Below, in pieces: positions 411 through 61,123 of a DNA stretch of 64,000 nucleotides. A program made the translations under genes and the position numbers. Origin of the DNA: Rhizophagus irregularis (lineage: Eukaryota). The DNA is taken from the NCBI RefSeq assembly GCF_026210795.1, contig NC_089430.1, forward strand, positions 1,054,001 through 1,118,000. The letters run 5' to 3'. Within the stretch, counting starts at the first letter, position 1. Every line of letters begins with the position of its first letter. The notes under the pieces were generated by a model. The model had not been told where the DNA came from. It made no database searches and saw only the letters and a list, made by a program, of their open reading frames with translations.

Positions 411-1396
411 ATGACGAGAAAAGAAAGGAGACGAGAAAAATCTTAATTAGGTTACCAGATTTTCAACATTTATGGAAAAAAAAAAAAAAAACTTACAACA
501 ATTTTCTGATGATTTACCAGCCCATCCCGATCCCATAATTCATGATTTTCTTTTAAATTGATAATGAATTTCTTCCCAGAATCGATGTCACCCGTGTCCT
601 GATCATTTGATAGCCACATTTGAGAAGGCTAATACCTTAGCTTTACATGGACTTTGGTTTGTGTCCCTTTCGAGGGCCTACTGTTTTGGTATTACATGGA
701 TGACCAGTTTTTTTCATTTACTAGCGGGTTGGGAGTGAAGTGAAAAGAAAAGATAAAATTTATTTGGCTTTAATTATTTTTCGTGGGAACTCAAAATTTA
801 GTGAGGGAGATTTGATAACGAAGATTATGGCGCAGTAAAAATCACGAGATTCAAAAATCAGATGATCAATTAGTAGATCAATCATTATGTAATCAAATAA
901 TTTTGTAGATCTGATTAACGTTACAATTGTTATTTTTGTTATTTATATTATTTATGTTATTTTTATTATTTTTATTATTTCTTTTATTTATTACATTTAT
1001 TTTATTTACTTTATTTATTTTAGTTATATTATTTTCTTTATATTTTATTTTTATATAAATATCTTTTGATTTTTTTTAAGTTAAAGTGTGTGTCAGTGTG
1101 TCAGATAGATAGAAAATAGATAGTATAAGTTAGGGATTAACTTGTATTAACTATTTAATAAACTCTTATATTAAAAACGAACTGTGATTGTGTTATATTT
1201 TGCATATTGTGTTTTTGCGTGTCTTGCTGATATAAACTACGTTATAGCTATTGACTCCCTAACGTTTAGTTATAGTTGACAGAGTCTGAGACGGACCTGT
1301 TAACACCGGGTAGGAATGCACATATTTGGAAAAAATATATTCAACAATTGAAGATTAGGTAACTATAAATTAGTACTCGATTTGATAGAACAAAAA

Positions 1397-3955
1397 ATGA
1401 CTGCCCAAACTAGCACTCAAGCTCAAGTTATCCCCAAGTTCGGTGAACAGAAGAAGGCTTTTAGTATTGATGAGCTTAAACGGCTCATTAACGCTGCTAA
1501 AAGTATGAGTGACCTTGATCAAGCTAAAGGTTATCTTTGCAGTTACTTTATCCCCTGCTCCAACCTGCATGGAGTCTTCATGTGGCGGTCAGAAATCAAA
1601 AACCTCGAGCACATCCCCGATAAAAATATTAGTAAACTTATCCGTCCAATTACCAAAGTCTTTTACACACAATCCGAACAAGGTCCCTCATAAAAGGTTG
1701 AATTTAATATTAACAAATGGTTTATGATCGAATATAGTACTGTATGTGTAGCTACCTATGACCCTCAAAAATCTCGTATCTTTAAACTAGGTGGCCAACT
1801 TTATCTCAATATCTTCCCAGGATTTCTCTATGTCCTGCGTCCGATATCCACTTTTGAGTCTACAACCCATCAGGCAGTTAAATTTATCTTCTTTCACATT
1901 CAAAATATCTGGTGTTCAGGCAATTGGAATCTTACTGAGTATATCATAAAGTGGTTGGCCAGTGTGGCAGCTGGAAGGAAAATGTATTCGATTCTCTACC
2001 TGAAATCTGGACAGGGTTGGGGTAAGAGTATTATAACAGATTTCATTCAACGTAGTGTTTTAGGTACTCAACTTGTTTATAAGACCAGCGATCCTCAAAC
2101 GATTCTTGGAAGTTTCAATGGGCAATTACAAGGTAAGGTTCTTCTTCTCCTCGAGGAAATGTCTACAGAAAAAAGCCAGTGGAATAATCTGTATCGATCG
2201 TTGAAGGATAAGATAACAGGTGACATAATGGAAATCCATGAAAAATACAAGACGCCAACACATTACAAAAACTTTATATCCACCATTGTACTCACTAATG
2301 AAAATGCTCTCAGAGTGGAGAATGACGATAGGCGCACAGTGTTCTTGGATGTGTCACCATCCCACAAGGGAGACCTCAACTACTTTAAGAAACTTAGTGA
2401 CGCTATGAAATACCCAGGCGCCAGTGAGGCATTCTATGCTTACTTGAGAGCCATTGCAGATGCTTACCCAGACTTCAATGGGAATCCACTACTTATGACA
2501 ACATCTAAGCAGGATCACATCATATCGACTCTTCCACCCCTATTTCAATTCATAAAGGACACTTACCTCATAGTAAAAAATCATATAACCGACCTACCTG
2601 TTCAAGAATTTTATAGGGTATATACTTCATACTGTGAAACTCATTGCATTACATCCCTATCAAAGATAAACGCTTCTAGAATCCTATCAAATGAGTTGGG
2701 TATAAATAGCAGAAAAATACGTGTAGGTAAGGCAACACCACGAGTTTACAGCATATCCAGGGAGGACCTTTACAAGAAGTTTCTCACCAAAAAATAGATC
2801 CACGAAACAGATGAAATCAATATAGAAAAAATAGATGTAGAAACTCCTGAAAAGCCCGCATCTGATCCAAATGCCTTGGTGAAGTTCTTGGCAAATATAT
2901 ATAATCCAGCTAGTAAATCGCAAGTAGATCAAGAGGAAGTGGAGCTAGTTGTTGAGAAACCTGTTGAAGAAAAACCTACTGAAGAGCAACCAGTTGCCAA
3001 AAAGGCTCCTCCACAAGTACCACCTAAACCTGATTGCTTGAAGGTAAAACCTGCACCTGTCATCAAAGAGGATCCTATTCCTGAGGAATCTCCAGCTCCC
3101 ATAGAGTCAGATACTGATGAAATTATAGACAGTTTCTCAGACTGTTATCTATCTGATGAGGAACCTGATCAAGAAAATGAGCCGCCTGCTGAGGAACCTG
3201 CATTTGAAGCTAATGATGACTACGACGTTTTAGATGACTTGCTATCTGACTCAGATCCTACAACTGCAGACCAAGTTCCTGAGCAACAACCCGAGTCTCC
3301 TGCAGAATCTTCTGCAAAATCTGAATCTCTCACAGATTCCAAATCTTCTACAGAACCTGTAGTAGAACTGACTCTCAAAGTGCAACCTATCCCAGAACCC
3401 GACACAGAACTAGAAGTTGACCGGGACCCTGAACCAAAGGAAGGTACTCGAGCACACTGGGCTTGGCATGAAAGGCACCGATGGAATCGTAAGCCATGGG
3501 TCAAGAATTCAAAGGACCAGGTCTTCAATGATCTCTACAATACAGGTAAGGATTTATGGGCTAAGTACCAAAACGCGTCAGACGAGTATGACTGGGAAAT
3601 ACTCGCGTTTGAAGTAGAGGAATGTCCCACAACACGTATTGAGGACAAGTACCAGTTCTACTTTAGGGAGGTAGTAGACCACTTCAAGGACTGGATCAAA
3701 TATAATGGGAACTCACCTAAAACACCTAGCCGTAAAGAACTCACAAATCTAATAAGAGTATACAAGGAGGATCGTGATGCCGAGATTATCCCTACTACCT
3801 CTGGTTATGAAACTATGAAGATGAATAAAGGTAAGATACGAGAAATCCCAGAGGAGCGTCCAAAGACCAATATGGAACGCCAGTGGGAGGCTGCTAATGG
3901 ATTTGTAGACGAGTTGGATATTGATGAGGCCTGTGATATGATTGACTCCTTTTAA
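1397..3955 (+). pseudogene. SF3 (D5-like) helicase with Pro/Glu-rich C-terminal extension; two premature stops
   Basis: Walker A SGQGWGKS, Walker B LLLLEE, motif C IVLTNEN. ORFs 1382-1693, 1724-2797 and 2876-3955 are one frame broken by TAA (1691) and TAG (2795), which are CAA and TGG in copy B. Confidence 0.85.
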
Positions 3956-6052
3956 TAAGATAAGCGCCTCTTAGTTATCTTATATTTTTTATATAAAAAA
4001 CCTATATTACAATTGAATACAATTCATAGTTATATCAAATGGCCTATTCAAAAATTGCACGTGCTTTACCTACAAGACTAGATATCAAAGAACTACAGTA
4101 TTCAGGCGCAAGATTTTCTAGAGGAGCTATTGCCAGACTTGGACAGCAACTCCAATCCCGGTATCCAACTCATAAATTTCAGATTCTGCTCCCCTATGAA
4201 AACTAAAAACCCGGTGGATGGACATCAGGAAACCAACCAGCCAGCCTCTTCTCACTCTTGGACCATTATGATGAAGCACAACTACCAGATAATGCTGATC
4301 CTGATTACTTTGAACGATTCATAATTTATGTGAGAGATGCTCTACCGGTTGCAGGGGGATGTAATGGGGAGCTAAATGATTGCCTGTATGAATGCCTGAA
4401 GCATATCTATGGTATATTCTCTAAAATAACTGAGACTATAAAAAAGCCTGAATATATCAAAAAGGCATTAGGTCTCAATCGTGATGCTCCAGTTCCAGTC
4501 TCATATATGGATAAAGTTGAATAACTTGCAGGAAGCCTTGCACTTAATATTGTAGGGATTCCACTCGAATTTCCAAGAGCAAGTCTGACAGACGTGCAAC
4601 CCTCATCCTGTTTGAAGGCCACTACTCTCTTGCACTGAATCCCGGAAGACTCCACCCTAGTAAATTAGATAGAAAACAAAAGTCTCCCTTTGTTTATCGT
4701 GATGATATGGTTAATAATGTAGTAACAATATACAATGGTAAGACAGTTAAGTCTCTTACAGTTGGACAGTTTCAGAAAGGTAAGAACTCTGATAGTTACT
4801 CCTTCATCTCTATTGAGAAGAATCGTAAAACTGGAATATATGAAACACTTGAGGAAACATACTAGAGGATCCATGAAGAGCGGGATTCCTTCCTACAGGC
4901 TACAAAGAAGTTTGGTCTAGGAATCGACTTATCTTACCACAACTGGTCGTACAAGAGAACTGCTCTCTGGCTTTTTGAACGGTTTAGTGTAGGGGTTCCA
5001 GCCAATGATCCTCTTGACCCTATAGAAGCAGAGTGGATAAGTGATGCTATGATGGGAGGTCATATCTGGGCAGATAATGAATGGAAGGGCTATGGAAGAC
5101 AATACGACGTGACAAGTTTGTATCCAAGTATTCAGCAATCGAATGCAAACTTTCCAATTCGACAAGATAAGTTTCAAATACTCAAAGACTTTGTAGACCA
5201 CAGAGGTTATGCCTTGTATGGATTATTTCGTGCTAAGGTAAGTGGTAATGACATTCTCTTCCGACAGAATAAGAGGGAGTCTATACATTCATTGACTTAC
5301 AACGAGCAAAGAAACTTGGTCTCGATATACAGTTAATCCAGAATGAAAAGCCAAATGCCTTAATATATGACAGAGAAGCAAGAATTCCTGGAATTGTAAT
5401 ATTTGGTGAGTATGTCCACTTTCTCTTCAATATAAAGAACCAGGGTGGCGTGGCCGGTTATGTTGCAAAGAGAGTTCTCAATACACTATGGGGAGCACTC
5501 TGCCAGAGGAAACGCAATTACAAGACACTCACCACAGATCAAACAGATCCATTCAAGTTTCCGGAAGGCCACACACTTGACTCCATCATACCAGTAGGAT
5601 CTGACCAGTGGCAATTCCAATTCACAAACCCAGGTAGTCCCTTCAAGGGTGAGTATCCTAGGATCGCTCCATTCTTATTAGCACATGGACGGAAGATGAC
5701 TTCAGAGTTATTAGAACCATATAAGTAAGGTTGCTTGCCGAAACTAGAGGGTTTCGGCAGAATGGCGTACGCGAAACTGCTGAAACTAGTTTCGCGAAAT
5801 CATCAAGAAATGCCGAAACTGCGAAACCTATCAAAATTGTGAAACTGCCATAACTTGCCGAAACTGTTTCGGCGTTTCGGCAATACTTTCTATATGATTT
5901 AATTAGAGTTTCGGCATTTAAACAATTTATAAGAATAAAGATTAAAGACAATATGAATTTTTGTATGTAAATATTTATTTTATAATATTTAATATTAAAC
6001 TAATAAAATACACGATTAAAAATATAATAAAAATTAAAATTTAATAATATCT

Positions 6053-21666: not shown

Positions 21667-22121
21667 TAATGGGCGCATTGTTCGTTGGTTTGTTTGCATA
21701 GTTGCTTCTTCTTAGGTTGGAATATATCTAGGCGGGGGATCAGGATAGTTTTAGTGTTATGCGATTTTTTCCTTTTTGAATTAATTTTATAGCTTTATTA
21801 CTGTTTTGGAGACTATATAGTTTTGTTTTTAGTTAATTTTATTTTTCTTTTTTGTACTTTGAAAATTTTATTTTATTTTTGTAAGTTCGTTAAATAAATT
21901 TAATAAAGATAAAGGCTACTATGCCATATTTGCCTCGACAAGGATTGATGACCATATAACCTTATCATCAGGTATCCTTGCATTTTTTAATAAGGACTGA
22001 TGACCATGTAATCTTATCATCAGGTATTCTTGTATTTTTTGATAAGGACTGATGACCATGTCACTTGGTTATTGTAAATTGAAGAAAACTATTAGGTATG
22101 TAGACACATACAGAAAAAGAC

Positions 22122-22699
22122 ATGTCTTACCCTTATATAGCTAACCCTATAACTGGACGTCCAATTATTATTGGTGGAGATACCTTTAATCGAATAGTTA
22201 TGGAATCCCATGATTATATTGATGGAAGGCTTGTCCGTAGACAAACTGCACTTCCACCTGAGGAGCAACCTGTATATTTAAATACAGATCAGGACATTAT
22301 GTTCGACGTGGTACTAGAATATATCATAGACTGATTGAGAGTGACTATGAGGTAGTTGAGGACTACTACCTTATCCATTATGAAGAAGAAGAGCTTATAG
22401 AGGAAATCATCAATGAAACACGCTATAATGAGGAAAATCTTGATGGCAAGCGGTTAACTTTCAATGATATACAACAAATCAGAACTGCTATTCAGGCTGA
22501 CCAAGATGAATATGATGATTTTATCTCACAGCAGGATATGACTGATATGACAACTATCGGTCCTTCCGGTCGTCCACAAACTTTGGAGGACCATGCCCCG
22601 AGACTTGCAGAGCTTAATATTGAGTTGTGTAGGGAATGTCTCATGCCTGTAAGCCCAAGTGACTTAACGGACAAGTTGTGCAAGGACTGCTCCGAATAG
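22122..22699 (+). pseudogene. Small protein with two NPxTGR-type repeats and a C-terminal C4 zinc finger (copy A, frameshifted)
   Basis: NPITGRPIIIGGDTFNRI and (from copy B) NTDTGRYVRRGTRTYHRL; ends LCRECLMPVSPSDLTDKLCKDCSE. Confidence 0.6.
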
Positions 22700-22744
22700 T
22701 TACTTAATTTTGAATAATTCTTTTTTACATAAAGAAAGATAGCC

Positions 22745-23304
22745 ATGTCAACATCAATCGTAATAAACCAGTGTCAAAACTGTGGAGTAATCACTCCAAA
22801 AACAGCACATAGAGGATTATCCAGTGTATTATACAGACAGATTATAAAGAAGATTAGTGATGAAAATGACCCTCTACAAGCCTTGGGACTTGCTAGGGAT
22901 AAGTTAGTTCAGATCATTCGTCGGGAAGTAATGTGGACTTTACACAATTGTTTACACAAAGACTGGATATAAAAATTATGGATGGAGAGCCATATGAAGA
23001 TATTAGGAAGTGGCTTCTCGAACAGCTTATAGCCATAGGTTGTGACAGTGGAGAAATTGCTTTATATCAATTTCTAAGGGATACATATTTAGATAGTATT
23101 GACGAGCCTTTCACTACATTCTATGAGAACTATGTAAATCATATAAGTAATCCAATGACTAAGAACTTTGCTTCTCGTGCTTTAGGAGCAATAGGGTTGA
23201 AGGCTAAGATGTTAAGGATTAACTTTGAAGGCCGTAAAAAAAGTGCTATGATTCTTAGAACTTCTGCAGACGAATTACTTGATATTCTCACAAGATACTA
23301 TTAA
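22745..23304 (+). pseudogene. 186-aa protein homologue (copy A, one frameshift)
   Basis: Matches intact 32391-32951 of copy B. Confidence 0.7.
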
Positions 23305-24080
23305 TCCCTACTTGTAATGCTCGACGGTCCATGTGGCTCTTAGAAAAGATCTGTAGAAGGACTTCAATACCTTCTATTATTTTTTTATTATCCAGAGGGC
23401 GACTAGACTTCAGGGCTTCATATTGGAAGAATAACTCCTTCACATTCTCAGTTTTCAGAGTTTCAGTCTTTGCAGTCCTACCCTGTACTTTAGCTAAGAA
23501 GTCCTGAAAGTCAGCTCCTAGGGTCTTACTAGAGAGTCCATAAGCTTCCCGAAAGACATATTTAATCCAGATATCTGTATTCTTGGCTAAGACACCAGGT
23601 ACAAGTAAATGTTTACGTTCTTTAGGGGATGGAAATACCCGAGCAAATTCAATCAAGTGTCCACCTTTTTTTGCTTCAGATACAGCTTTCTGACCATAGG
23701 GACTAAACTTGGATCGAACTGTGATTGAACTGGGTTCAGACTGAGATCGAACTGGGTTCAAACTTGGATCAAACTGAGATTGAACTGAGATCGAACTAGG
23801 ATTGAACTGAGATTGCTCTGAGATCGAACTGAGACTAGTATCCCATCTTACTCGAATGGACAGTGGATCACTTTTGGACCGTCTAAGATCAAACACTACA
23901 AATTCACGTTGCAGAGTAAGATTATCAATTACTGGTGCTAATGACTCTGATTCTTCTGTATATAGGCGGATGATTCTCTTGGTATCTGTAAGGCTCCCAT
24001 GACCTCCATGCAGTGAGATGTAGTTAACATTTTCTCGAATAGCCTTAAGAATGGCAAAGAATCTTTGGGCTACATAAATA
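23288..24080 (-). pseudogene. Packaging ATPase copy A, 3' part (continues at 41287-41312 and 57706-58120)
   Basis: Reverse complement of the copy B ATPase; joins seamlessly across the pogo TA and the hAT GTCGTCCA duplications. Confidence 0.88.
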
Positions 24081-24467
24081 CCGTATAGCGCTGCATATAG
24101 TACCTGGGGTACTATTCAAAAACGCCAGCCTAAATTAAATAGTACCCGGGGGGGTATTATGTGAGGAGGAGGGTACTATAAAAAGGGGGTACATTGTAAA
24201 GGGGGTACTAATCATGTGATAATATTATTAACAGTTAAGTAATCAAAAGAACTCTAACAATTTTCAACCGCAAAATTTAAAATAAAATAAAAAACTTCAG
24301 ATGTAAAATGTAAAAATTTTGTAAATTCGGAAATTATTGTAATGATGATCGTAATTCAGATCAGAATAAATCATGAAATTCAATCGTGTTTTTCGCGTTT
24401 TTATTCTGCAACTTTTATTTCATATAAAATGGGTCCCCGCGCAAACAAAAGAATTAACCGCTAAACA

Positions 24468-26222: not shown

Positions 26223-26686
26223 GTCGTCGGGCTGGATGTGGGAGGTGCAAGCACCACCCACCTCCGGGTCTACGACCCGTCGCAGTACCTATATCGCCCC
26301 TACGGGGCTCAGAAATCCCCATATATCCGCCACAATCTGGGACAACATATGGAACAAATATATATACCAAATAACTAGAAAACAATAGAAAAGGAAGGAA
26401 TAATGGATATAATGAGAGGGTTGTCCCGGATGTGGCAGATGTGGCAGATGTTTCAGAAAAAATATGAGAGGACATTCCCCCAGAAAAAGTTTTATTTTTA
26501 CCCCCTCAGATCCGCCACATCCGGAACATCTGGAACAAGTCAGGATTCTGTCTAATAATCTGTTGGAAGCAGTGAGACAGCAAACCAGGTAAATTAGTAG
26601 GTAAGCCCCTAGAAGGTCTATAAAGCCAGTAAGACCAACCCCGTCCCGCTCCCATCAGAAAAAATAAGTAATTGAACAATGGGTAT
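26223..26686. repeat. Terminal inverted repeat of copy B (integrase side)
   Basis: GTCGTCGGGCTGGATGTGGGAGG...AACAATGGGTAT is the reverse complement of 40489-40951 with few mismatches. Confidence 0.95.
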
Positions 26687-26725: not shown

Positions 26726-27045
26726 CTAATCCGTCTTCCTCTTTTTTGCCTCCTTAAGGCATTTATCAATACACTGTTTACACGCGTCATCAGAATCTAA
26801 GATTTTCTGTCCAAGTTTTTTGCATTGCCGATTGTAAGCCGTCTGCTGTCTCTTAGCAGCGGTTTCTTTTTTTTCTCCTTAGTCTTCTTCTTGATCACCC
26901 AGTCTATTCCAGTAAAAGTATTCTTATGCATACCACAAATTGTGCAGTCACCATGCAGCCGGTAACGCCCATTTGTAGTCATATCTTGTATTTCACTAGC
27001 CGTCTCAGTTTCCTTCTTGCACTTTAGGCAGTAAAAACGTGTCAT
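26726..27045 (-). pseudogene. Zinc-ribbon protein (DUF5679-like), frameshifted in copy B
   Basis: FYCLKCKK...NGR..L.G.C.ICG..K..F; intact homologue at 62260-62580. Confidence 0.65.
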
Positions 27046-27089: not shown

Positions 27090-28181
27090 ATGTCGCATTT
27101 AGAGAATTATTACAAATACTACAATCTCTCCGGAGTACCAGCACGAATTCTAAAAGGTGAGGAGCACTACAACCTATACAAAAAGCCCCTAAAGGAGAAG
27201 TCAACAGAACGCCCAAAGGTAATTGTATGGAAACCAAATGCAACACATCAGGCAGATCTTGCAGAGATGCCAGTTGACCCCAAAGGATTCCACTATTTTC
27301 TCGTAGTGGTAGAAGTTGCAGGAAAGAGAGTTGATGCAGAACCCCTAAAGGATAAGACTGCAAATAGAGTTCTAAACGGGTTTGTCAAAATCTACAGAAG
27401 AAATCGTATCAAGCCTCCAACACACCGACTAAAGACAGACTCCGGATCAGAATTCACTAACGACCAGGTACGTGATTTTTTCCTGAACAGCCTAGGGGTA
27501 ATGATGAGGTTCGGAGAGCCAGGAAGGCATAAACAGCAATCTTATGCTGAAAGAGCTATCCAAGCCATCCAAGAAACCCTTCTTAAACGAATGGTAGCAC
27601 AGGAGTTGAAAACTGGGGTGACATCCGTAGAATGGTCAGAAGATTTCCATAATATAGTGAATAAAGTAAATGAACTCTGGCAGAGAAATCCCCCAGACAT
27701 TCCGACAGAGTCACCCAAAGTGTCAAAAAAGACGGATCTCCTCTCTGAAGGAGCACGTGTCAGAGTCAAGTTAGATGAACCTATTTCTGTACTTGATAAC
27801 AAACTTCACGGAAAATTCCATACAGGAGACATAAGATGGAACCCAAACATTCGTGTAATCAAAAAAATGATACTCTCACCTGAACAGCCTCCTACATATC
27901 TTCTTAACGGACCACATGGTCGATTAGGTGTATCCAGATGTGCATATACCCGAAAGGAATTGCAAGTAGTTCCTATTAATGAAAAGCCTCCACCTGACTC
28001 TGTGATAAGAGGACAACCTGAAAGATTTGTTCTTGAGCAGATACTTCGGCATCGCATTAGAAAAGGTCAAGACCAGTATTTGGTTAAGTGGGAGCGCTAT
28101 CCAGACACTGAGGCTACTTGGGAACCTGCTGACCAGTTGAAGGAGGATGTCCCTGACTTAATTCGCAAATTTTGGGAATAA
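27090..28181 (+). CDS. Retroviral-like (rve, DDE) integrase with C-terminal chromodomain, intact
   Basis: HQADL, TDSGSEF, YAERAI (D,D,E triad); chromodomain EQILRHR....QYLVKWERYPDTEATWEP. First ATG at 27090. Confidence 0.92.
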   Translation: MSHLENYYKYYNLSGVPARILKGEEHYNLYKKPLKEKSTERPKVIVWKPNATHQADLAEMPVDPKGFHYFLVVVEVAGKRVDAEPLKDKTANRVLNGFVKIYRRNRIKPPTHRLKTDSGSEFTNDQVRDFFLNSLGVMMRFGEPGRHKQQSYAERAIQAIQETLLKRMVAQELKTGVTSVEWSEDFHNIVNKVNELWQRNPPDIPTESPKVSKKTDLLSEGARVRVKLDEPISVLDNKLHGKFHTGDIRWNPNIRVIKKMILSPEQPPTYLLNGPHGRLGVSRCAYTRKELQVVPINEKPPPDSVIRGQPERFVLEQILRHRIRKGQDQYLVKWERYPDTEATWEPADQLKEDVPDLIRKFWE

Positions 28182-28205
28182 AAAAAATAGAAAAATTAAA
28201 GGGTC

Positions 28206-28945
28206 TTATTTTTTATCCCCTCGATTAGCATCAGGAACTATCAGGATAAAAACATTCTTCCCATCACAGGTAAAGGCTATATGTTCACGTGATTCATGGA
28301 CATCATAATTGTAACGTTTCAGACACGTTCGGCTTAACCCAATTTCCCTATGCTTGTAACCACTTAAGACTGCAAGGTCCTCAGTGATAGCATAATCAGG
28401 GGTAAGTTTGATTGTCACTCCCTTTACCATGCCAAATGTCCTACCTGTTCCTGAAGTACCAGATATGTTGTATGTAATACTCTTGTCGATATCCAACCCT
28501 AATTCCTCAGCAGCTTCTCTCTGAATAAAAGACGCATTAGCACAAGTGTCTGCTAAACACTGAATTGCTATCCCATTAACCTCCCCATCCAGTGCTAAAA
28601 GATCTTTAGTATTCTCTAAACGAGCTATGTCAATATCCATAGGATCGTCTACCCTGATATCTTCTTCTTGTTCCTCCTCAACTAGGTCCTCCGGAATCTC
28701 TGTGACTTTTCTAGCAGACAATAACTCCTCCTGAAGAATCTCACGGAGTAATTTCCTAAAGTCTGCAGACCTTAACAGGCTTAATAAGTCATTCTTAGTA
28801 ACAGCTTTTGCAGGTGTAGACTTACTACCAGTAACTTTCACAGGAATCTTAACAGGGGTTGCTTTGCCTTTCAATGGCACACTAGAAGAGCTAACTGCTG
28901 TCTTATTTGGGGACGACTTAAGAAGTTTTGAGATACTTGAACCTA
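28206..28945 (-). CDS. Retropepsin-type aspartic protease, in the -1 frame relative to the Gag-like ORF
   Basis: GEVNG..IQCLADTCANASFI..EAAEELGL, flap ISGTSG, IGLSRTCL. Frame is open back to the A-run before the Gag stop. Confidence 0.82.
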
Positions 28946-30373
28946 CTTTTTTTTTGACCCAACACGAACCATATAGACATCACCATCTTTTTCTTTCAAT
29001 TCTACCTTTTCACCAAAACTCGCAGTATCAATGTCCATAGCATCATCATTAAGATCGAGGTTTCTCATTGCTCGGGCCAAATCCAGATCATCACGTCTAT
29101 CTTTAGCCTTCTGAAGTTGTTTTGTAAGTATTTTAGACGTCCCACGTTTATATCCCATAATAAGATCAATAGCATTTTGATGATCATCCAAAGTCCACTC
29201 AGGAGCATCAGGGTCATCACCAACATCATGATCTACATAACCATCATCCCAATCAGGATCCTGAGGATCCTGAACAACACGTCTCTGTGGTTTTGGTCGA
29301 ACAGGTTTAATCTGCTGTCTATAGACTGGTGGATTACGAACTGGCCGAGCCTGTAATTGTTTAAATTGCACCTGAAAATTCTTGGTAAGTTCCTCAGCTT
29401 GAGCCTTAAGTAACTCTTGTAATTGTTCTTGAGTAACCCCAGATGACTTTGATGTCAGTACGACAGGTTCCTGTTTTCCTAACAGAGGTTGAGTTACATC
29501 ACTGTAATCTGCTTGAAGTCGTCGATTTCTATCTTGTAACCCCAAGCGCATTTCAGCCCTTCTCCGTTCTAAATTTCTCAGATGTTTAACCAAGTCATCA
29601 GGATTAAGATTACTAAACCTTTCTGCTTCAAAAATATTATCAGCCGAAAGACCTCTAAAGAACTGGTCGATAATAAGATCATCAGTTAGTTTTAGTAATT
29701 TTCCAGCTCTCTTTACAGTTCTATAAAATGCATCGACTGGCTCATTTTCCTGATAAAGACTGTTAAAACGGATACGTTTCTTTTCATCTAAAATAGTTGG
29801 AAATTGTGTTCTAAGCCAATAAAGCGCCTGGTTAGGTTTAATACCTGAAAAAACTATAAGATGATTATTAGCAGCAGCAACACCAGCATCTGCAGTAGCT
29901 GGAGCAACTCTATCTGTCGGACGAGCACCAGCTCTTTCCCAAGCTTTATTTCCACCTATTAAATCATGAGTAGGAATAAATGTTGCTCTAATAGTTGCTA
30001 ATGCATTATTTATATCTCTTGAATAGATTTGTGCTTCAGACCCATTTACATAGGTACCTGCATTTGGTCCTCCTGCACCTTCTGGTATTACTAATGCTAC
30101 AAAAGCAGCTAAATTAGCTCCACCTCTTGAAGTGATACCAGAAAGTTCCCAATTTTTTCCTGTAATTTCTCGATCAAACCATTCAGTTGCTTCACCAGTC
30201 ATGCAGCTTCTAAGTATACCCATAGCTCTTTTCCAAGACTCTGGTGGCCCTCCAGCAGCATATGGGTTAAGATTAATAGTATCAAGATAACCCATATAAA
30301 GCCTAACAAATGTATCAATATCATCAATAGCTTTACCCTCAAAAATCGGCAATTCTATCGCAGTGGTAGCCAT
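28943..30373 (-). CDS. Retrotransposon Gag (capsid)-like protein, 476 aa, intact
   Basis: LPIFEG..DDIDTF, LRSCMTGEATEWF, and an MHR-like LYQ.NEPVDAFY...K.......D..IIDQFFRGL. No zinc knuckle seen. Confidence 0.78.
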   Translation of the reverse strand: MATTAIELPIFEGKAIDDIDTFVRLYMGYLDTINLNPYAAGGPPESWKRAMGILRSCMTGEATEWFDREITGKNWELSGITSRGGANLAAFVALVIPEGAGGPNAGTYVNGSEAQIYSRDINNALATIRATFIPTHDLIGGNKAWERAGARPTDRVAPATADAGVAAANNHLIVFSGIKPNQALYWLRTQFPTILDEKKRIRFNSLYQENEPVDAFYRTVKRAGKLLKLTDDLIIDQFFRGLSADNIFEAERFSNLNPDDLVKHLRNLERRRAEMRLGLQDRNRRLQADYSDVTQPLLGKQEPVVLTSKSSGVTQEQLQELLKAQAEELTKNFQVQFKQLQARPVRNPPVYRQQIKPVRPKPQRRVVQDPQDPDWDDGYVDHDVGDDPDAPEWTLDDHQNAIDLIMGYKRGTSKILTKQLQKAKDRRDDLDLARAMRNLDLNDDAMDIDTASFGEKVELKEKDGDVYMVRVGSKKK

Positions 30374-31152
30374 ATCGTCTCTAGTGGATTGTTTAAAAGA
30401 GGTGGAGGAGGGTTCAATTGTCTAATTCGAAACCATTGTACCTGAATTCTAAGAGCAGCTATCTGTTGGAAAAGTCTATTTCTAAGTCTCCCTAATGTCT
30501 GAATCCCAAAACGCACCCTATTATTAGCATGTGCTAGCTGTACATTAACCTGTCCAAGTTGCACATTAACCAATACAAGTTGTCCTCCAGTTCGAGTAGC
30601 CCTCAGCCGCCAATGATTTAAAAGGATATTACCACGATTCACAGCATTTTGAGCCTCATTACGATCCCTTACTGCTTGAGTATAATCTGCTTGTAATACA
30701 TTACGTTCATGTCATGCCTGATTACGTTCACCTATAGCCTGTCGACGAAGCTCTACCATAGTATCATAATCTCTTTGCAGGTTATGGTTTTCTTCTATGA
30801 AATTATCATTGGCAGCACGTATAATAACTAATTGACATTCTAAATTAGTAAACGTTTCATCAAATGCATTTATCTTACCTTGTGCAAAAACTAACAAATC
30901 TTTTGTAATACCAAGTTCTTCATGTTTTGCTTTACAGCGATACATTAATATATTAATAATATGTTTGATTTGATTATTTGCCTCCTGTATCTCTGAATCA
31001 ACAGTTAAACGACCCCTGGTAGTCAATAAATTTGCATGAGCCTTTAGTATTCTAACTAATTCATCATCGTCTTTTTCATTGACCAAGTGTGCAGGAGGCG
31101 GTCCAGTAGGTTCTGAAGGAGTATAAACTGGAATTGGTGTTGATGTCGACAT
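30355..31152 (-). pseudogene. Coiled-coil protein upstream of Gag (265 aa; one CGA>TGA stop at 30712)
   Basis: Intact homologue at 58152-58949; heptad-rich; ends PPPPLLNNPLETIWLPLR overlapping the Gag start. Confidence 0.75.
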
Positions 31153-31183
31153 AGTATTTAAACTAAGTTAGAATAAAATTCAA

Positions 31184-32407
31184 ATGGATCTTTATATATA
31201 CAATTTGGACGAGTATACGACCGACTCAAGACAAGGCAATGAGTTTGCTCCATCATGGCCCTTTCGATTAGCTGTAGCAGGTAGCTCAGACTCAGGTAAG
31301 ACAACTATGATCATTAATTTGTTAATGGGTGACAAGAAAGCAAAAGAGGATGGTAATCGGTATGTACTATGTGATGCAGTACTTTTAGTTGGCAGATATC
31401 TTGACGAGCTGAAGTGGGCAGTTGTACATGATTTTTTCGAAGAGGAAAAGATCCCATTCACTGCAGTAACCCATAGTGAGATTTCAGAGATTGACTCCTT
31501 CGACCCTACTCAAGCTACTGTGGTAATCTTCGAGGATCTGATGGATGCACCTAAAAAAATCCAGGATCTCATCACTGGTTACTTTACACATGGACGACAC
31601 AAAAATATTTCATGTATTTATGTAGCCCAAAGATTCTTTGCCATTCCTAAGGCTATTCGATAAAATGTTAACTACATCTCACTGCATGGAGGTCATGGGA
31701 GCCTTACAAATACCAAGAGAATCATCCGCCTATATACAGAAGAATCAGAGTCATTAGCACCAGTAATTGATGATCTTACTCTGCAACGTGAATTTGTAGT
31801 GTTTGATCTTAGACGGTCCAAAAGTAATCCACTGTCCATTCGAGTAAGATGGGATACTAGTCTCAGTTCTATCACAGAGCAATCTCAGTTCAATCCTAGT
31901 TCGATCTCAGTTCAATCTCAGTTTGATCCAAGCTTGAACCCAGTTCGATCTCAGTCTGAACCCAGTTCAATCACAGTTCGATCCAAGTTTAGTCCCTATA
32001 GTCAGAAAGCTGTATTTGAAGCAAAAAAAGGTGGACACTTGATTGAATTTGCTCGGGTATTTCCATCCCCTAAAGAACGTCAACATTTACTTGTACCTGG
32101 TGTCTTAGCCAAGAATGCAGATACCTGGATTAAATATGTCTTTCGGGAAGCTTATGGACTCTCTGGTAAGACCCTAGGAGCTGACTTTCAGGATTTCTTA
32201 GCAAAAGTACAGGGTAGGACTGCAAAGACTGAAACTCTGAAAACTGAGAATGTGAAGGAGTTATTCTCCCGATATGAAGCCCTGAAGTCTAGTCGCCCTC
32301 TGGATAATAAACAAATAATAGAAGGTATTGAAGTCCTTCTACAGATCTTTTCTAAGAGCCACATGGACCGTCGAGCATTACAAGTAGGGATTAATAGTAT
32401 CTTGTGA
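31184..32407 (+). pseudogene. A32/FtsK-HerA-type DNA-packaging ATPase (407 codons; one stop at 31661 that is GAA in copy A)
   Basis: PFRLAVAGSSDSGKTT (Walker A), VVIFEDL (Walker B), FTHGRHKNISCIYVAQ (Arg finger and sensor Gln), IPKAIR.N. Confidence 0.88.
31864..31995. repeat. 11-bp tandem repeat, 12 units, inside the ATPase ORF
   Basis: Consensus CAGTTCGATCY; also present in copy A at ~23700-23831. Confidence 0.85.
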
Positions 32408-37339: not shown

Positions 37340-39882
37340 TTAAAAGGAGTCAATCTTGCTGCATACACGATCAAGATCCTCTTCATCCCAGTCGTCGACA
37401 ATTCCATTGGCGGCTTCCCATTCACGTTCCATATCAGTTTTTGGACGTTCCTCTAGGATTTCTCGTGCTTTACCCTTATTCATCTTCATAGTTTCATAAC
37501 CAGAGGTGGTAGGAATAATCTCGGCATCACGATCCTCCTTGTATACTCTTATTAGATCTGCGAGTTCTTTACGGCTATGTGTTTTAGGTAAGTTCCCATT
37601 ATATTCGATCTAGTCCTTGAAGCGGTCTACTACCTCCCTAAGGTAATACTGGTACTCGTCCTCAATACGTGTTGTGGGACATTCCTCTACTTCAAACGCG
37701 AGTATTTCCCAGTCATAGTCGTCTGACACGTCTTGGTACTTAGCCCATAAATCCTTACCTGTATTGTAGAGATCATTGAAGACCTGGTCCTTTGAATTCT
37801 TGACCCATGGCTTACGATCCCATCGGTGCCTTTCATGCCAAGTCCAGTGTGCTCGAGTACCTTCCTTTGGTTCAGGGTCCCAGTCAACTTCTAGTTCTGT
37901 GTCGGGTTTTGGGATAGGTTGCTCTTCAGGAGCCGGTTCTGGGTCAGGCTTAGTGACAGATGCAGAAAATTCTGCAGGAGACTCAGGTTGTTGTTCAGGA
38001 GCTGGGTTCACAGTTGTAAAATCTGAGTCAGATAGCAAGTCATTTAAAACGTCGTAGTCATCATCAGCTTTATATGCAGGTTCCTCAGCAGGCGGCTCAT
38101 TTTCTTGATCAGGTTCCTCATCAGATAGATAACAGTCCGAAAAGCTATCTATAGGTTCATCAGTATCAGATTCTATAGGAGCTGGAGATTCCTCAGGAAT
38201 AGGATCCTCATTGATGACAGGTGCGGGTTTTACCTTCAAGCAATCGGGCTTAAGTGGTACTGGTGGTGGAGTCTTTTTGGAAACTGGTTTCTTTTCAATA
38301 GGCTTCTTCTTGACAGGAGCGGGTTTTTCCTCAGCAGGTTTCTCTTGTACGTCTTGTGGATTATTAGCAGGAATGCTATATATATTTGCCAAGAACTTTT
38401 CTAAGGCTTTGGGATCAGATGCGGGCTTCTCGGGAGTTTCTACATCTATTCCTTCTATATTGATTTCATCTGTTTCGTGGATCCATTTTTTGGTGAGAAA
38501 CTTTTTGTAAAGGTCCTCCCTAGATATGCTGTAAACTCGTGGTGTTGCCTTACCTACACGTATTTTTCTGCTATTTATACCCAACTCATTTGATAGGATT
38601 CTAGAAGCGTTTATCTTTGATAGGGGTGTAATGCAATGAGTTTCACAGTATGAAGTATATACCCTATAAAATTCTTGAACAGGTAGGTCGGTTATATGAT
38701 TTTTTACTATGAGGTAAATGTCCTTTATGAATTGAAATAGGGGTGGGAGAGTTGATATGATGTGATCCTGCTTAGATGTTGTTATAGGTGGTGGATTCCC
38801 ATTGAAGTCTGGGTAAACGTCTGCAATGGCTCTCAAGTAAGCATAGAATGCCTCACTGGCACCTGGGTATTTCATAGCGTCACTGAGTTTCTTAAAGTAG
38901 TTGAGGTCTCCCTTGCGGGATGGTGACACATCCAAGAACACTGTGCGCCTATCGTCATTCTCCACTCTGAGAGCATTTTCATTAGTGAGTACAATGGTGG
39001 ATATAAAGTTTTTGTAATGTGTTGGCGTCTTGTATTTTTCATGGATTTCCATTATGTCACCTGTTACCTTATCCTTCAATGATCGATACAGATTATTCCA
39101 CTGGCTTTTTTCTGTAGGCATTTCCTTGAGGAGGAGAAGAACCTTACCTTGTAATTGCCCATTGAAACTTCCAAGAATCGTTTGAGGATCACTGGTCTTA
39201 TAAACAAGTTGAGTACCTAAGACACTACGTTGAATGAAATCTGTTATAATACTTTTACCCCAACCCTGTCCAGATTTCAGGTAGAGAATCGAATACATTT
39301 TCCTTCCAGCTGCCACACTGGCCAACCACTTTATGATATACTCAGTAAGATTCCAATCGCCTGAACACCAGATATCCTGAATGTGAGAGAAATAAATTTA
39401 ACTGCGAGGTGGGTTGTAGATTCAAAAGTGGATATCGGACGCAGGATATGGAGAAATCCTGGGAAGATATTGAGATAAAGTTGGCCACCTAGTTTAAAGA
39501 TACGGGATTTTTGAGGGTCACAGGTAGCTACACATACAGTACTATATTCGATCATAAACCATTTGTTGATATTAAATTCAACCTTTTGTGAAGGACCCTG
39601 TTCAGATTGTGTGTAAAAGACTTTGGTAATTGGACGGATAAGTTTATTAATATTTTTATCAGGGATGTGCTCGAGGTTTTTGATTTCTGATCGCCACATG
39701 AAGACTCCATGTGGGTTGGAGCAGGGGATAAAGTAACTGCAAAGATAACCTTTAGCTTGATTGAGATCCCTCATATTCTTTGCAGCGTTAATGAGCCGTT
39801 TAAGCTCATCAATACTAAAAGCCTTCTTCTGTTCACCGAACTTGGGGATAACTTGAGCTTGAGTGCTAGTTTGGGCAGTCAT
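37340..39882 (-). pseudogene. SF3 (D5-like) helicase, copy B (one frameshift, one late stop)
   Basis: SGQGWGKS, LLLLKEM, IVLTNEN; colinear with 1397-3955. Confidence 0.85.
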
Positions 39883-40174: not shown

Positions 40175-40459
40175 TTAACTCTTTACAAGCCTTTTGATAC
40201 GCCTTCCATTCAAGTTCACAGAGGATACCCTCCTCCTCCAATGATTGGCCAAGAGCATCATTTGCTTTTTCCTTCTTTTCACTGCCCTGTCGTATGCCTC
40301 CTCGGCTTTTTTATGCCGCTTCCAGAGTACTCGTTCAGCTTCAGCTCTCCAGATTGGGCTGACTTCTAAAAGATGTGGCCCAAAATTGCTACTTGGAATG
40401 TGTTCCAGGATATGGCTTACAAGTTCGGGGATTACTAATACTGCGTGCGGGGTATACAT
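40175..40459 (-). CDS. F-box-like small protein next to the TIR (possibly frameshifted at its 3' end)
   Basis: VLVIPELVSHILEHIP......LLEVSPIWRAEA fits an F-box-like pattern. Confidence 0.55.
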   Translation of the reverse strand: MYTPHAVLVIPELVSHILEHIPSSNFGPHLLEVSPIWRAEAERVLWKRHKKAEEAYDRAVKRRKKQMMLLANHWRRRVSSVNLNGRRIKRLVKS

Positions 40460-40488: not shown

Positions 40489-40951
40489 ATACCCATTGTT
40501 CAATTACTTATTTTTTCTGACGGGGGCGGGACGGGGTTGGTCTTACTGGCTTTATAGACCTTCTAGGGGCTTACCTACTAATTTACCTGGTTTGCTGTCT
40601 CACTACTTCCAACAGATTATTAGACGGAATCCTGACTTGTTCCAGATGTTCCGGATGTGGCGGATCTGGGGGGTAAAAATAAAACTTTTTCTGGGGAGAT
40701 GTCCTCTCATATTTTTTCTGAAACATCTGCCACATCTGCCACATCCGGGACAACCCTCTCATTATATCCGTTATTCCTTCCTTTTCTATTGTTTTCTAGT
40801 TATTTGGTATATATATTTGTTCCATATGTTGTCCCAGATTGTGGCGGATATATGGGGATTCCTGAGCCCCGTAGGGGCGATATAGGTATTGCGACGGGTC
40901 GTAGACCTGGAGGTGGGTGGTGCTTGCACCTCCCACATCCAGCCCGACGAC
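40489..40951. repeat. Terminal inverted repeat of copy B (helicase side)
   Basis: Inverted copy of 26223-26686; ends CCAGCCCGACGAC. Confidence 0.95.
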
Positions 40952-57705: not shown

Positions 57706-58120
57706 GTCGTCCATGTGTAAAGTAACCAGTGATGAGATCCTGGATTTTTTTAGGTGCATCTATCAGATCCTCAAAGATTACTACAGTAGCTTGAGTAGAG
57801 TCAAAGGAGTCAATCTTTGGAATCTCACTATGGGTTACTGCAGTGAATGGGATCTTCTCCTCTTCGAAAAAATCATGTACAACTGCCCACTTCGGCTCGT
57901 CAAGATATCTGCCAACTAAAAGTACTGCATCACATAGTACATACCGATTACCATCCTCCTTTGCCTTCTTGTCACCCATTAACAAGTTAATGATCATAGT
58001 TGTTTTACCTGAGTCTGAGCTACCTGCTACGGCTAATCGAAAGGGCCATGATGGAGCAAACTCATTGCCTTGTCTTGAGTCAGTCGTGTACTCATCCAAA
58101 TTGTATACATAAAGATCCAT
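57706..58120 (-). pseudogene. Packaging ATPase copy A, 5' part
   Basis: AGSSDSGKTT, VVIFEDL, YFTHGR, then interrupted by the hAT TIR. Confidence 0.88.
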
Positions 58121-58151
58121 TTGAATTTTATTCTAACTTAGTTTAAATACT

Positions 58152-58949
58152 ATGTCAACATCAACACCAATTCCAGTTTATACTCCTTCAGAACCTACTG
58201 GACCGCCTCCTGCACACTTGACCAATGAAGAAAATGATGATGAATTAGTTAGAATACTTAAGGCTCATGCAAATTTATTGACTACCAGGGGTCATTTAAC
58301 TGTTGATTCAGAGATACAGGAGGCAAATAATCAAATCAAACATATTATTAATATATTAATGTATCGCTGTAAAGCAAAACATAAAGAACTTGGTATTACA
58401 AAAGATTTGTTAGTTTTTGCACAAGGTAAGATAAATGCATTTGATGATATGTTTACTAATTTAGAACGTCAATTAGTTATTATACGTGCTGCCAATGATA
58501 ATTTCATAGAAGAAAACCATAACCTGCAAAGAGATTATGATACTATGGTAGAGCTTCATCGACGGGCTATAGGTGAACGTAATCAGGCACGACATGAACG
58601 TAATGTATTACAAGCAGATTATACTCAAGCAGTAAGGGATCGTAATGAGGCTCAAAATGCTGTGAATTGTGGTAATATCCTTCTAAATCATTGGCGGCTG
58701 AGGGCTACTCGGACTGGAGGACAACTTGTATTGACTAATGTGCAACTTGGACAGGTTAATGCACAGCTAGCATATGCTAATAATAGGGTGCGTTTTGGGA
58801 TTCAGACATTAGGGAGACTTAGGAATAGACTTTTCCAACAGATAGCTGCTCTTAGAATTCAGGTACAATGGTTTCGAATTAGACAATTGAACCCTCCTCC
58901 ACCTCTTTTAAACAATCCACTAGAGACGATATGGCTACCACTGCGATAG
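58152..58949 (+). CDS. Coiled-coil protein upstream of Gag (265 aa, intact in copy A)
   Basis: Homologue of 30355-31152; carries T_TTA_AAC at 58907-58913. Confidence 0.75.
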   Translation: MSTSTPIPVYTPSEPTGPPPAHLTNEENDDELVRILKAHANLLTTRGHLTVDSEIQEANNQIKHIINILMYRCKAKHKELGITKDLLVFAQGKINAFDDMFTNLERQLVIIRAANDNFIEENHNLQRDYDTMVELHRRAIGERNQARHERNVLQADYTQAVRDRNEAQNAVNCGNILLNHWRLRATRTGGQLVLTNVQLGQVNAQLAYANNRVRFGIQTLGRLRNRLFQQIAALRIQVQWFRIRQLNPPPPLLNNPLETIWLPLR

Positions 58950-60361
58950 GATTGCCAATTTTTGAGGGTAAAGCTACTGATGATATTGATACATTTATTA
59001 GGCTTTATATGGGTTATCTTGATACTATCAATCTTAACCCATACGCTGCTGCAGGGCCACCAGAGTCTTGGAAAAGAGCTATGGGTATACTTAGAAGCTG
59101 CATGGCTGGTGAAGCGGCTGAATGGTTTGATCGAGAAATTACAGGAAAAAATTGGGAACTTTCTGGTATCACTTCAGCTGGTGGAGCTAATTTAGCTGCT
59201 TTTGTAGCATTAGTAATACCAGAAGCTGCAGGAGGACCGAATGCAGGTACCTATGTAAATGGGTCTGAAGCACAAATCTATTCAAGAGATCCAATTAATG
59301 CATTAGTAACTATTAGAGCAGCATTTATTCCTACTCATGATTTAATGGGTGGAGATGAAGCTTGGAAAAGAGCTGGTGCTCGTCCGACAGATAGAGTTAC
59401 TCCAGCTACTGCAGATGCTGGTGTTGCTGCTAATAATAATCATCCTATAGTTTTTCCAGGTATTAAACCTAACCAGGCGCTTTATTGGCTTAGAACACAA
59501 TTTCCAACTGTTTTAGATGAAAAGAAACGTATCCGTTTTAACAGTCTTTACCAGGAAAATGAGCCAGTTGATGCATTTTATAGAACTGTAAAGAGGGCTG
59601 GAAAATTACTAAGACTAACTGATGATCTTATTATCGACCAGTTCTTTAGAGGTCTTTCAGCTGATAATATTTTTGAAGCAGAAAGGTTTCACAATCTTAA
59701 TCCTGATGACTTGGTTAAACATCTGAGAAATTTAGAATGAAGAAGGGCTGAAATGCGCTTGGGGTTACAAGATAGAAATCGGCAACTTCGAGCAGATTAC
59801 AGTGATGTAACTCAACCTCCATTAGGAAAACAGGAACCTGTCGTACTGACATCAAAGTCAACTGGGGTTACTCAAGAACAATTACAAGAGTTGCTTAAGG
59901 CTCAGGCTGAAGAACTTACCAAGAATTTCCAGGTGCAATTTAAACAATTACAGGCTCAGCCAGTTCGTAATCCACCAGTCTATAGACAGCAGATTAAACC
60001 TGTTCGACCAAAACCACAGAGACGTGTTGTTCAGGATCATCAGAATCCTGATTGGGATGATGGTTATGTAGAACCTGATGTTGGTGATGACCCTGATGCT
60101 CCTGAGTGGACTTTGGATGATCATCAAAATGCTATTGATCTTATTATGGGATATAAACGTGGGACGTCTAAAATACTTACAAATCAACTTCAGAAGGCTA
60201 AAGATAGACGTGATGATCTGGATTTGGCTTGAGCAATGAAAAACCTTGATCTTAATGATGATGCTATGGACATTGATACTGTGAGTTTTGGTGAAAAGGT
60301 GGAATTGAGAAAAAAAGATGGTGATGTCTATATGGTTCCTGTTGGGTCAAAAAAAAAGTAG
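58931..60361 (+). pseudogene. Gag-like protein, copy A (stops at 59738 and 60230)
   Basis: Colinear with intact 28943-30373. Confidence 0.78.
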
Positions 60362-61098
60362 GTTTGAGTATCTCAAAACTTCTTAAGTCGTCCCCAAATA
60401 AGACAGCAGTTAGCTCTTCTAGTGTGCCCTTAAAAGGCAAAGCAACCCCTGTTAAGATTCCTGTGAAAGTTACTGGTAGTAAGTCTACACCTGCAAAAGC
60501 TGTTACTAAGAATGACTTATTAAGCCTATTAAGGTCTGCAGACTTTAGGAAATTACTCCGTGAGATTCTTTAGGAGGAGATGATGTCTGCTAGAAAAGTC
60601 ACAGAGATTTCAGATGACTTAACTGAGGAGGAACAAGAAGAGGATATCAGGAAATACGATCCTATGGATATTGATATAGCTCGTTTGGAAAATATTAAAG
60701 ATTTATTAGCACTTAATGGGGAGGTTAATGGGATAGCAATTCAGTGTTTAGCAGACACTTGTGCTAATGCGTCTTTTATTCAGAGAGAAGCTGCTGAGGA
60801 ATTAGGGTTGGATATCAACAAGAGTATTACATACAACATATCTGGTGCTTCAGTAACAGATAGGACATTCGGCATGGTAAAGGGAGTGTTAATCAAACTT
60901 ATTCTTGATTATGCTATCACTGAGGATCTTGCAGTTTTAGATGGATACAAGCATAGGGAAATTGGATTGAGCCGGACGTGTCTGAAACGTTACAATTATG
61001 ATGTCCATGAATCACGTGAACATGTCGCCCTTACCTGTGATGGGAAGAATGTTTTTATCCCAATAGTTCTTGATGTTAATCGAGGAGACAAAAAATAA
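60358..61098 (+). pseudogene. Retropepsin-type aspartic protease, copy A (CAG>TAG at 60571)
   Basis: CLADTCANASFI; -1 frame relative to Gag. Confidence 0.8.
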
Positions 61099-61123
61099 GA
61101 CCCTTTAATTCTTCTATTTTTTT

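Follow-up and report, generated by a model that had tools for sequence, protein, structure and literature searches.

The window analysed here comprises 64,000 nucleotides of the Rhizophagus irregularis genome (assembly GCF_026210795.1, contig NC_089430.1, positions 1,054,001 to 1,118,000, forward strand). It contains a gene for an A32/FtsK-HerA-type ATPase that is paired with a Gag capsid gene inside a 14,729-bp element (26223-40951). The element is a Glomerales Maverick/Polinton, as identified from its family B DNA polymerase (PolB), rve integrase, long terminal inverted repeats and A32 ATPase. The Glomus/Rhizophagus Polintons to which it belongs have been known since 2006-2007, a membership that a preliminary description of the ATPase gene had missed. 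The Gag-ATPase pairing is real, conserved and unusual, and it occurs in a known element family. We tentatively favour the reading that the jelly-roll shell gave way to a Gag shell, which the ATPase fills with the double-stranded DNA (dsDNA) of the element. With a shade more reserve, Glomerales Mavericks may be regarded as chimeric dsDNA viruses in which the module of jelly-roll capsid, penton and adenain was replaced by Gag and protease and the A32 motor was kept. That Gag encapsidates the element, with or without the ATPase as its pump, is probable.

The ATPase gene matches the Pfam family Pox_A32 (PF04665, E 6.3e-9). A Walker A motif (GSSDSGKT), a Walker B motif (VVIFEDL), a GRH arginine finger and a sensor Q were located where the preliminary description had placed them, and its assignment to the A32/FtsK-like type is borne out by the Pfam match together with an A32/HerA-type predicted fold. 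Conservation was counted in the best 120 of 232 homologs, many of which are decayed genomic copies or gene models. The Walker A lysine was present in 105/105 aligned rows, and the arginine finger and the sensor glutamine were each present in 109/120. A32 ATPases have a Walker B of the form hhhhDD; the form hhhhED is fixed in this family (E in 110/120, D in 110/120, with 7-8 gaps).

The fold was predicted from the intact homolog P0001 (predicted local distance difference test, pLDDT, 73). The model matched VirB4 (Z 14.2), HerA (Z 13.2) and the STIV2 packaging NTPase B204 (Z 12.8; 179 residues aligned, root-mean-square deviation, rmsd, 3.7), and it also matched viral A32 ATPases. Residues 266-407 are predicted with confidence to form a helical domain outside the range of these structural matches, for which no Pfam match and no usable Atlas match were found. 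A sequence search of the Protein Data Bank (PDB) with the ATPase profile found nothing, and no relative was found in IMG/VR (single-sequence and alignment scans) or in prokaryotic genomes. A tree of 20 family rows and eight distant rows, built without a virophage or nucleocytoplasmic large DNA virus outgroup, cannot place the family. The DNA for the linker (31861-31992) consists of imperfect tandem repeats of 11 nt, about 12 here, whose number differs between copies with the frame staying open.

The ATPase copy at 31184-32407 is a pseudogene. An in-frame TAA (31661-31663) occupies codon 160 of 407 and cuts the protein just past the sensor Q. This stop is private to the 14.7-kb copy: the third copy in the window (24081-21981) is open across the position, and all contigs over 31661 carry a different base in four of four DNA-type runs (X15-X17 and X19, kept as contigs; their exact kind is not on record). 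Nonsynonymous to synonymous rate ratios (dN/dS) were estimated by the Nei-Gojobori method for the window and five further loci (L001-L005), in pairs that share branches and are not independent. For codons 1-225, dN/dS was 0.05-0.10 in 11 of 15 pairs (three others were saturated and one near-identical), and for the extra C-terminal domain it was 0.20-0.32 in seven of ten. The ATPase family is under strong purifying selection. Neutral evolution had been named beforehand as a refuting outcome; these values are non-neutral, and a neutral relic is rejected for the family because of them. The gene had been called retained, which holds for the family but not for the copy at hand, the stop of which had been overlooked. 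In one locus, L004, the fungal ATPase gives way within 1200-3129 to a GC-rich frame for a bacterial ABC transporter; the contig is likely an assembly chimera, and its ATPase end is uninformative.

The Gag protein was modelled with AlphaFold from 21 sequences (mean pLDDT 62, mostly 75-90 in the helices of the capsid domain, CA). In a VIA search with this model, rows 1-34, covering both domains, were all retroviral, retrotransposon or Arc/PEG10/PNMA capsids, including HERV-K Gag (Z 9.8; 169 aligned, rmsd 8.2) and the PEG10 C-domain (Z 9.5; 84 aligned, rmsd 2.4); taken singly, the Z values are modest given that the protein is helical, and it is the uniform list of capsids that constitutes the evidence. 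Foldseek placed PEG10 at the top with E 0.014 and returned nothing below 0.001. In the Atlas, Gag scored 0.93 to Retrotrans_gag clusters with 118/256 features shared, the mark of a distant relative, and a caulimovirus coat protein appeared in row 26 of the Gag search. The PDB sequence search gave a weak PEG10 match only (E 0.3), and IMG/VR yielded no relative in scans with the Gag alignment and with an alignment of knuckle-bearing Gags. The predicted structure is a two-domain helical CA capsid fold. The insertion in its N-domain (residues ~73-178; 29840-30160, minus strand) is rich in Gly, Ala and Asn, is common to all Glomeromycota relatives seen, whether knuckle-bearing or not, and could form a surface spike. 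The N-terminal halves of Gag are exchanged in L001 (1-397), P0187, P0243 and P0165, with the flanking genes and Gag tails staying close, a pattern that resembles capsid swapping under pressure.

A retropepsin-like protease follows Gag in the -1 frame. In three of three loci with DNA (the window, the second copy and L005) Gag ends in a run of nine A, a G and the stop, and the protease is open in the -1 frame; a lysine run ends 15 of 16 full-length stand-alone Gags. A -1 frameshift giving a minor Gag-protease fusion is predicted, similar to the junctions by which retroelements control particle stoichiometry. Active retropepsins carry the motif D[TS]G. Here DTCA was found in 82 of 82 pattern-matched protease homologs (120 examined), the Asp being kept, and the activity of the protease is therefore in doubt; three sister proteases have DTGS, and others deviate too.

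The window's Gag contains one cysteine and no CCHC zinc knuckle, as the preliminary description had observed, and no CCHC occurs in any of 120 listed homologs. The Gag profile search gave 358 relatives, from which a midpoint-rooted tree was built with the 49 rows covering the CA region, shorter hits being dropped. The window falls in a 29-row branch (support 92/90) whose Gags each have a start Met of their own, two of them being spliced gene models. CCHC was found in 0/27 protein rows checked in this branch (0/16 full-length) versus 7/20 rows outside it. Many of the 20 outside rows carry a coiled coil fused in frame, and those named come from Rhizophagus, Racocetra, Entrophospora, Diversispora and Acaulospora. 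With the root set at the midpoint, the direction of change is inferred; since the CCHC knuckle is the common state of Gag, its loss in the window's branch is the simpler reading. No reverse transcriptase (RT) domain was found in 25 gene models of knuckle-bearing Gags, which is uninformative because a frameshifted Pol would fall outside the model. In one Entrophospora gene model (P0393) a knuckle-bearing Gag runs by eye into an integrase C-terminal-like tail and a zinc-ribbon nuclease, which hints that DNA elements, too, may harbour Gags with a knuckle.

Gag and ATPase are linked through a coiled-coil gene that is intact in the second copy and L001 and has 40 homologs. The ATPase ATG lies 31 nt from the divergent coiled-coil ATG at 31152, in agreement with the preliminary description, and the two genes stand head-to-head, 31-55 nt apart, in 7/7 loci. 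Gag comes next after the coiled-coil gene in all four loci that reach that far, even at 54% ATPase identity: in L005 (54% identity for the ATPase, 34% for Gag) the order of integrase, protease, Gag, coiled-coil gene and ATPase is kept. Two ordinary fungal promoters with their leaders would not fit into 31 nt; the two transcripts must be very short in their leaders or else overlap.

In sister Gags a coiled coil is fused to the N-terminus, and the coiled-coil gene stands in the corresponding place. When the family of this gene was compared by profile with the alignment of the sister Gags, the relationship received no support (probability 0.8%); a weak match to P0388 (E 1e-5, 36% over 84 aa) was obtained with the L005 coiled coil only. 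The position of the gene and this one match suggest that it may be a severed Gag N-terminus. A TTTAAAC heptamer (30389-30395, minus strand) in the frame of the coiled-coil gene immediately precedes the Gag start, which overlaps that gene; the heptamer is also present in the second copy and L001 and could give a coiled-coil-Gag fusion by -1 frameshift. Such a frameshift is not claimed, the heptamer being present in three of the four loci examined and absent from L005. A spliced polyprotein of coiled coil, Gag and protease, as in public gene models, was rejected: the junctions vary between models, and no joints were seen at the low depth available.

Genes of the canonical capsid module were searched for in the element. 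The double jelly-roll capsid profile PF21738 matched none of its 25 frames of at least 100 codons, and tblastn from two capsid-bearing loci (L014 and L016) gave no match. These two, scanned out of 11 distant ATPase loci, served as positive controls, their fragments matching PF21738 with E 1.6e-12 to 0.002. No unassigned frame of the element exceeds 190 codons; a very divergent capsid could escape a sequence search. Penton and adenain-type cysteine protease gave no Pfam or tblastn match; the three small unassigned ORFs (open reading frames) were judged by sequence, not by predicted fold. No YxDD-type motif was present in six frames and no RT Pfam match was obtained. A nested long terminal repeat (LTR) retrotransposon was rejected on the grounds that there is no LTR and no RT, that the ends are inverted and that the cassette order is the same in L005 and the second copy. 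In both L014 and L016 the distant ATPase relative adjoins a double jelly-roll capsid, the ancestral context.

Table 1. Features of the 14.7-kb element and of its further copies in the window (window coordinates).
Feature	Position	Strand	Details
Left 5-bp target-site duplication, TTAAA	26218..26222	.	Same 5-mer at 40952-40956
Left terminal inverted repeat, about 464 bp	26223..26686	+	97.4% identical to right repeat
DUF5679 zinc-ribbon gene, frameshifted	26797..27045	-	Intact copy 62260-62580 matches PF18930, E 8.9e-18
rve (DDE) integrase with C-terminal chromodomain, 363-aa open frame	27090..28181	+	PF00665 E 2.7e-9, PF00385 E 8.5e-17; DDE motifs present
Retropepsin-like aspartic protease, -1 relative to Gag, active site DTCA	28206..28979	-	PF13650 E 7e-8
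Predicted -1 frameshift site, 9 A + G right before Gag stop	28943..28955	-	Conserved A-run
Gag capsid protein, 476 aa	28943..30373	-	CA N-domain with insertion of about 105 aa, CA C-domain, helical/disordered tail, no CCHC
Coiled-coil gene, 265 aa in intact copies, overlaps Gag start	30355..31152	-	In-frame stop 30712-30714
Spacer between divergent start codons, 31 nt	31153..31183	.	31-55 nt in 7/7 loci
A32/FtsK-HerA ATPase gene	31184..32407	+	407 codons; Pfam, motifs, selection, predicted fold
ATPase layout			P-loop domain, codons 1-225; repeat-encoded linker, 31861-31992; extra helical domain, about 266-407
ORF, 186 aa	32391..32951	-	No Pfam match; 85% identical homolog in same place in L006
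ORF, at least 139 aa	33080..33499	-	L006 homolog has 2-cysteine adaptor domain, PF08793 E 1.9e-5
ORF, 156 aa	34792..35262	-	No significant Pfam or PHROG match
Protein-primed-type family B DNA polymerase, about 626 codons	35376..37256	-	In-frame stop 36132-36134
D5-like superfamily 3 helicase (DUF5906), frameshifted near 39330-39400	37610..39882	-	PF19263 E 7.3e-17; PHROG primase E 1.8e-19
Small ORF, F-box-like by eye only	40175..40459	-	No Pfam match
Right terminal inverted repeat	40489..40951	-	97.4% identical to left repeat
Right 5-bp target-site duplication, TTAAA	40952..40956	.	Same 5-mer at 26218-26222
Second copy, inverted, partial	57706..63491	.	95% identical; terminal repeat, integrase, protease, Gag, intact coiled-coil gene, ATPase codons 1-138
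Third partial copy	21981..24081	.	95.7% identical; ATPase from codon 144, open to end, and two ORFs behind
Fourth partial copy (helicase, polymerase)	1309..5725	.	91.6% identical
Further element piece	12338-13131	.	96.2% identical

The gene order of the element is DUF5679, integrase-chromodomain, retropepsin, Gag, coiled-coil gene, ATPase, three small ORFs, PolB, superfamily 3 (SF3) helicase and a small ORF (Table 1). Hallmarks of Polintons/Mavericks are a 5-6 bp target-site duplication and 5'-AG...CT-3' ends. In the one complete insertion the TTAAA duplication appears only with 5'-GT...AC-3' ends and none is obtained with AG...CT ends; the chance of such a match is about 0.002 from the flank composition. 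The PolB motifs YDVTSLYPS, KRVLNTLWG and HTDGF were read directly, the profile matches being weak (PF03175 E 0.0017, phrog_1907 E 0.014). Five genes are broken (ATPase, coiled-coil, polymerase, helicase and DUF5679), and this copy is therefore dead. The closest named homologs are proteins of R. irregularis and R. clarus (59-95% identity). In L005 an F-box gene (5175-5699, minus strand; Pfam E 1.4e-5) lies tail-to-tail with the ATPase.

Among the closest published counterparts is P_Gi1.2 of Glomus intraradices (= R. irregularis), which was tabulated in 2014 as lacking capsid, penton and cysteine protease and possessing the ATPase (PMC4028283, Table S1). It comes from the same host group and has the same gene profile as that detected in the present element; the P_Gi records measure 11.0-12.0 kb versus 14.7 kb here, the comparison being by description only. 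Gag, retropepsin or a frameshift is not mentioned for them in the table and passages of PMC4028283 covered. P_Gi1.1 (Polinton-1_GI) is listed without capsid, penton, cysteine protease and ATPase. As nine of the 12 capsid-less Polinton rows in that table also lack the ATPase, keeping it is the exception. According to the relevant passage of PMC7805220, no capsid gene has yet been found for G. intraradices Polintons.

The Fig. 5 legend of Starrett et al. (2021) lists Matrix/Capsid/NC/Pro and S3H in a PolB 'related element' (PMC8502044). Judged by this legend, that element is likely of the family described here, which may thus already be drawn in the figure; the legend lists NC, whereas the present Gag lineage has no CCHC knuckle, and the text of section 3.4 does not discuss the 'related element'. 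Glomus and Rhizophagus A32 genes from fragmented assemblies group with Maverick-Polinton ATPases in a preprint (10.64898/2026.06.19.733378), in the main text of which, as available, the word 'gag' does not occur. The portions covered of PMC11952901, PMC8647823, PMC11296320, PMC5294986, PMC7017919, PMC3671162, PMC6431247, PMC5751038 and 10.64898/2026.10.13.758929 contain no Gag-Polinton link. Subscription papers, the 2006-2007 descriptions and Repbase aside, neither a Gag-ATPase pairing nor a replacement of the Polinton capsid is discussed in the full-text literature searched.

With canonical Polintons (animal Polintoviricetes, adintoviruses) the element shares inverted ends, a protein-primed PolB, an rve integrase-chromodomain and the A32 ATPase, which is about 25-33% identical to those of L007-L017 over the P-loop core. 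It differs from them in that no jelly-roll, penton or adenain is detected and Gag and retropepsin stand in their place, and in an extra ATPase domain of about 140 aa, an SF3 helicase and, with GT...AC ends, a 5-bp duplication. With Ty3/gypsy Gag and PEG10/Arc/PNMA it shares the predicted two-domain CA fold and a retropepsin behind Gag in the -1 frame, whereas it has no LTRs, no RT motif and no knuckle and carries the N-domain insertion. Caulimoviruses hold dsDNA in a Gag-derived shell; in these, as in Ty3/gypsy-type shells, the DNA is made inside by reverse transcription and no motor is involved.

A32/FtsK-like ATPases pump dsDNA into jelly-roll capsids, and Gag shells co-assemble on RNA via zinc knuckles. 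To our knowledge, A32-type motors occur only with shells of the jelly-roll lineage and CA-fold shells only with RNA co-assembly. In the favoured reading, PolB and the helicase would copy the excised linear genome and Gag would assemble an empty shell without RNA. The extra helical domain at the C-terminus of the ATPase would dock it on this shell, with the coiled-coil protein, not CA, as the most plausible contact, and the ATPase would fill the shell by pumping in the 14.7-kb dsDNA; the integrase would re-insert the released DNA. To hold 14.7 kb at a packing of 55-30%, a shell must have an inner radius of 19-23 nm. As this is close to the size of a T=9 retrotransposon shell, dense filling would need a motor. 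Because no fusogen or lysis gene was seen in the element, the particle would be expected to spread inside the cytoplasm that hyphae share and to pass between hyphae where they fuse.

Several observations weigh against filling of a Gag shell by the ATPase. We know of no portal in a CA lattice, the weak point of the reading, and the pores known to us are too narrow for duplex DNA. The pairing is read from genes and predicted folds. With a non-standard ED in Walker B and DTCA in place of D[TS]G, either the ATPase or the protease may have changed role, and dN/dS is higher for Gag than for the ATPase (0.43-0.57 at dS near 1). In L001 the ATPase and coiled-coil protein are 87% identical but Gag only 43% over its first 96 residues; ATPase and CA are therefore not tightly co-inherited, and a docking partner, if there is one, would more fittingly be the coiled-coil protein. 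All loci were found via the ATPase, so that Gag elements without it could not appear. The knuckle-less branch has a support of only 92/90, and the knuckle loss, read from Gag proteins, need not coincide with the ATPase. A Glomus Polinton, P_Gi1.1, is listed without an ATPase, in a table silent on Gag (PMC4028283, Table S1). RNA was surveyed in four raw-read runs (at most three samples, two studies, about a quarter of each read). Between 129 and 282 reads, most of them partial, fell on 15 kb, with a mean depth of at most 0.65 per direction over 29607-32612 and near zero over the coiled-coil gene, Gag and ATPase in all four runs; in these samples the family is hardly expressed.

The same evidence can be read with the Gag particle real but the ATPase acting otherwise than as a filling pump, in end binding or nucleation of co-assembly, DNA condensation, uncoating or nuclear entry. 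We consider this somewhat unlikely. Linkage and selection fit it equally well, CA shells normally co-assemble around their cargo, the Walker B is non-standard and the best structural neighbours include the non-packaging translocases VirB4, HerA and EccC. All catalytic motifs are conserved, however, Gag lacks a knuckle and its basic stretches are short, and the A32 family packages genomes wherever tested (PMC4028283, in the passages covered). Less likely again is that the two modules are independent, the ATPase serving replication, segregation or movement of free linear DNA and Gag-protease being captured cargo with a benefit of its own, such as restricting host retrotransposons or ferrying RNA or protein. 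The exchanged Gag N-domain of L001, with ATPase and coiled-coil gene kept, and the variant protease site DTCA would suit such cargo. Domesticated CA proteins also act as restriction factors (the Ty1-derived Drt2 is among the Gag fold matches), and a capsid-less, ATPase-positive element without a known Gag exists in Platynereis (P_Pd1.1; PMC4028283, Table S1). Yet the cassette stays 31-55 nt from the ATPase start down to 54% identity, occupies the expected capsid-protease position and keeps its frameshift-type junction.

Quite improbable, finally, is a helper Polinton or giant virus that supplies a jelly-roll capsid in trans, into which the ATPase packages the element. A 1.5-Mb asfarvirus-like region was described in one R. 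irregularis strain (PMC10640383, in part). The covered part of that study reports no A32 in genomes with many copies of the element's ATPase, and its negative capsid search was thus insensitive to Polinton-type proteins. Against a helper, no major capsid gene is reported for G. intraradices Polintons in the covered parts of PMC4028283 and PMC7805220 or for five chromosome-level R. irregularis genomes in that of PMC10640383; a helper would be expected to carry an ATPase of its own, and the conserved Gag cassette would be left unexplained. A helper capsid was the second refuting outcome named in the preliminary description: no jelly-roll was found in the element and none is reported for the host group, but these searches are too insensitive to exclude a helper.

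The surroundings of the element are rich in other transposons. The element is inserted in the 3' part of a Pogo/Tigger-like transposon (about 24081-41286; TA-flanked inverted ends, class assigned from motifs), which itself splits the ATPase of another Maverick copy at 24081. Pieces of hAT-like type (5726-7442, 10014-12337, 41313-45241 and 57009-57705), with ends beginning TAAGGTTGCTTGCC, cut three Maverick copies, one of them within the ATPase at 57706. A non-LTR retrotransposon at 13866-21666 (plus strand) has, as read by eye, an open 1873-aa endonuclease-RT-RNase H frame and upstream ORF1 pieces; a related ORF1 is found at 8405-9922 (minus strand). An 11.7-kb AT-rich stretch (45355-57014) that has 677-bp direct repeats (99.6% identical) at its ends and many tandem arrays (209, 71 and 17 nt) resembles a very young LTR-type element.

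If the favoured reading of a motor-filled Gag shell is true, the ATPase would be the first motor to fill a capsid of retroviral fold with DNA. Two virus realms would be joined in one particle, the CA lattice could accept a motor, and the element would represent a candidate dsDNA virus of arbuscular mycorrhizal fungi. It would also explain why the Glomus Polintons without a detectable capsid include one that keeps its ATPase. A direct test is possible, since all three proteins are small and there are natural copies with intact genes. The passages covered describe an expansion of Mavericks that is specific to Glomerales (PMC11952901) and count them among the elements that expanded recently in R. 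irregularis (PMC8647823); how they spread is therefore relevant to the genomes of the principal symbiotic fungi of plants.

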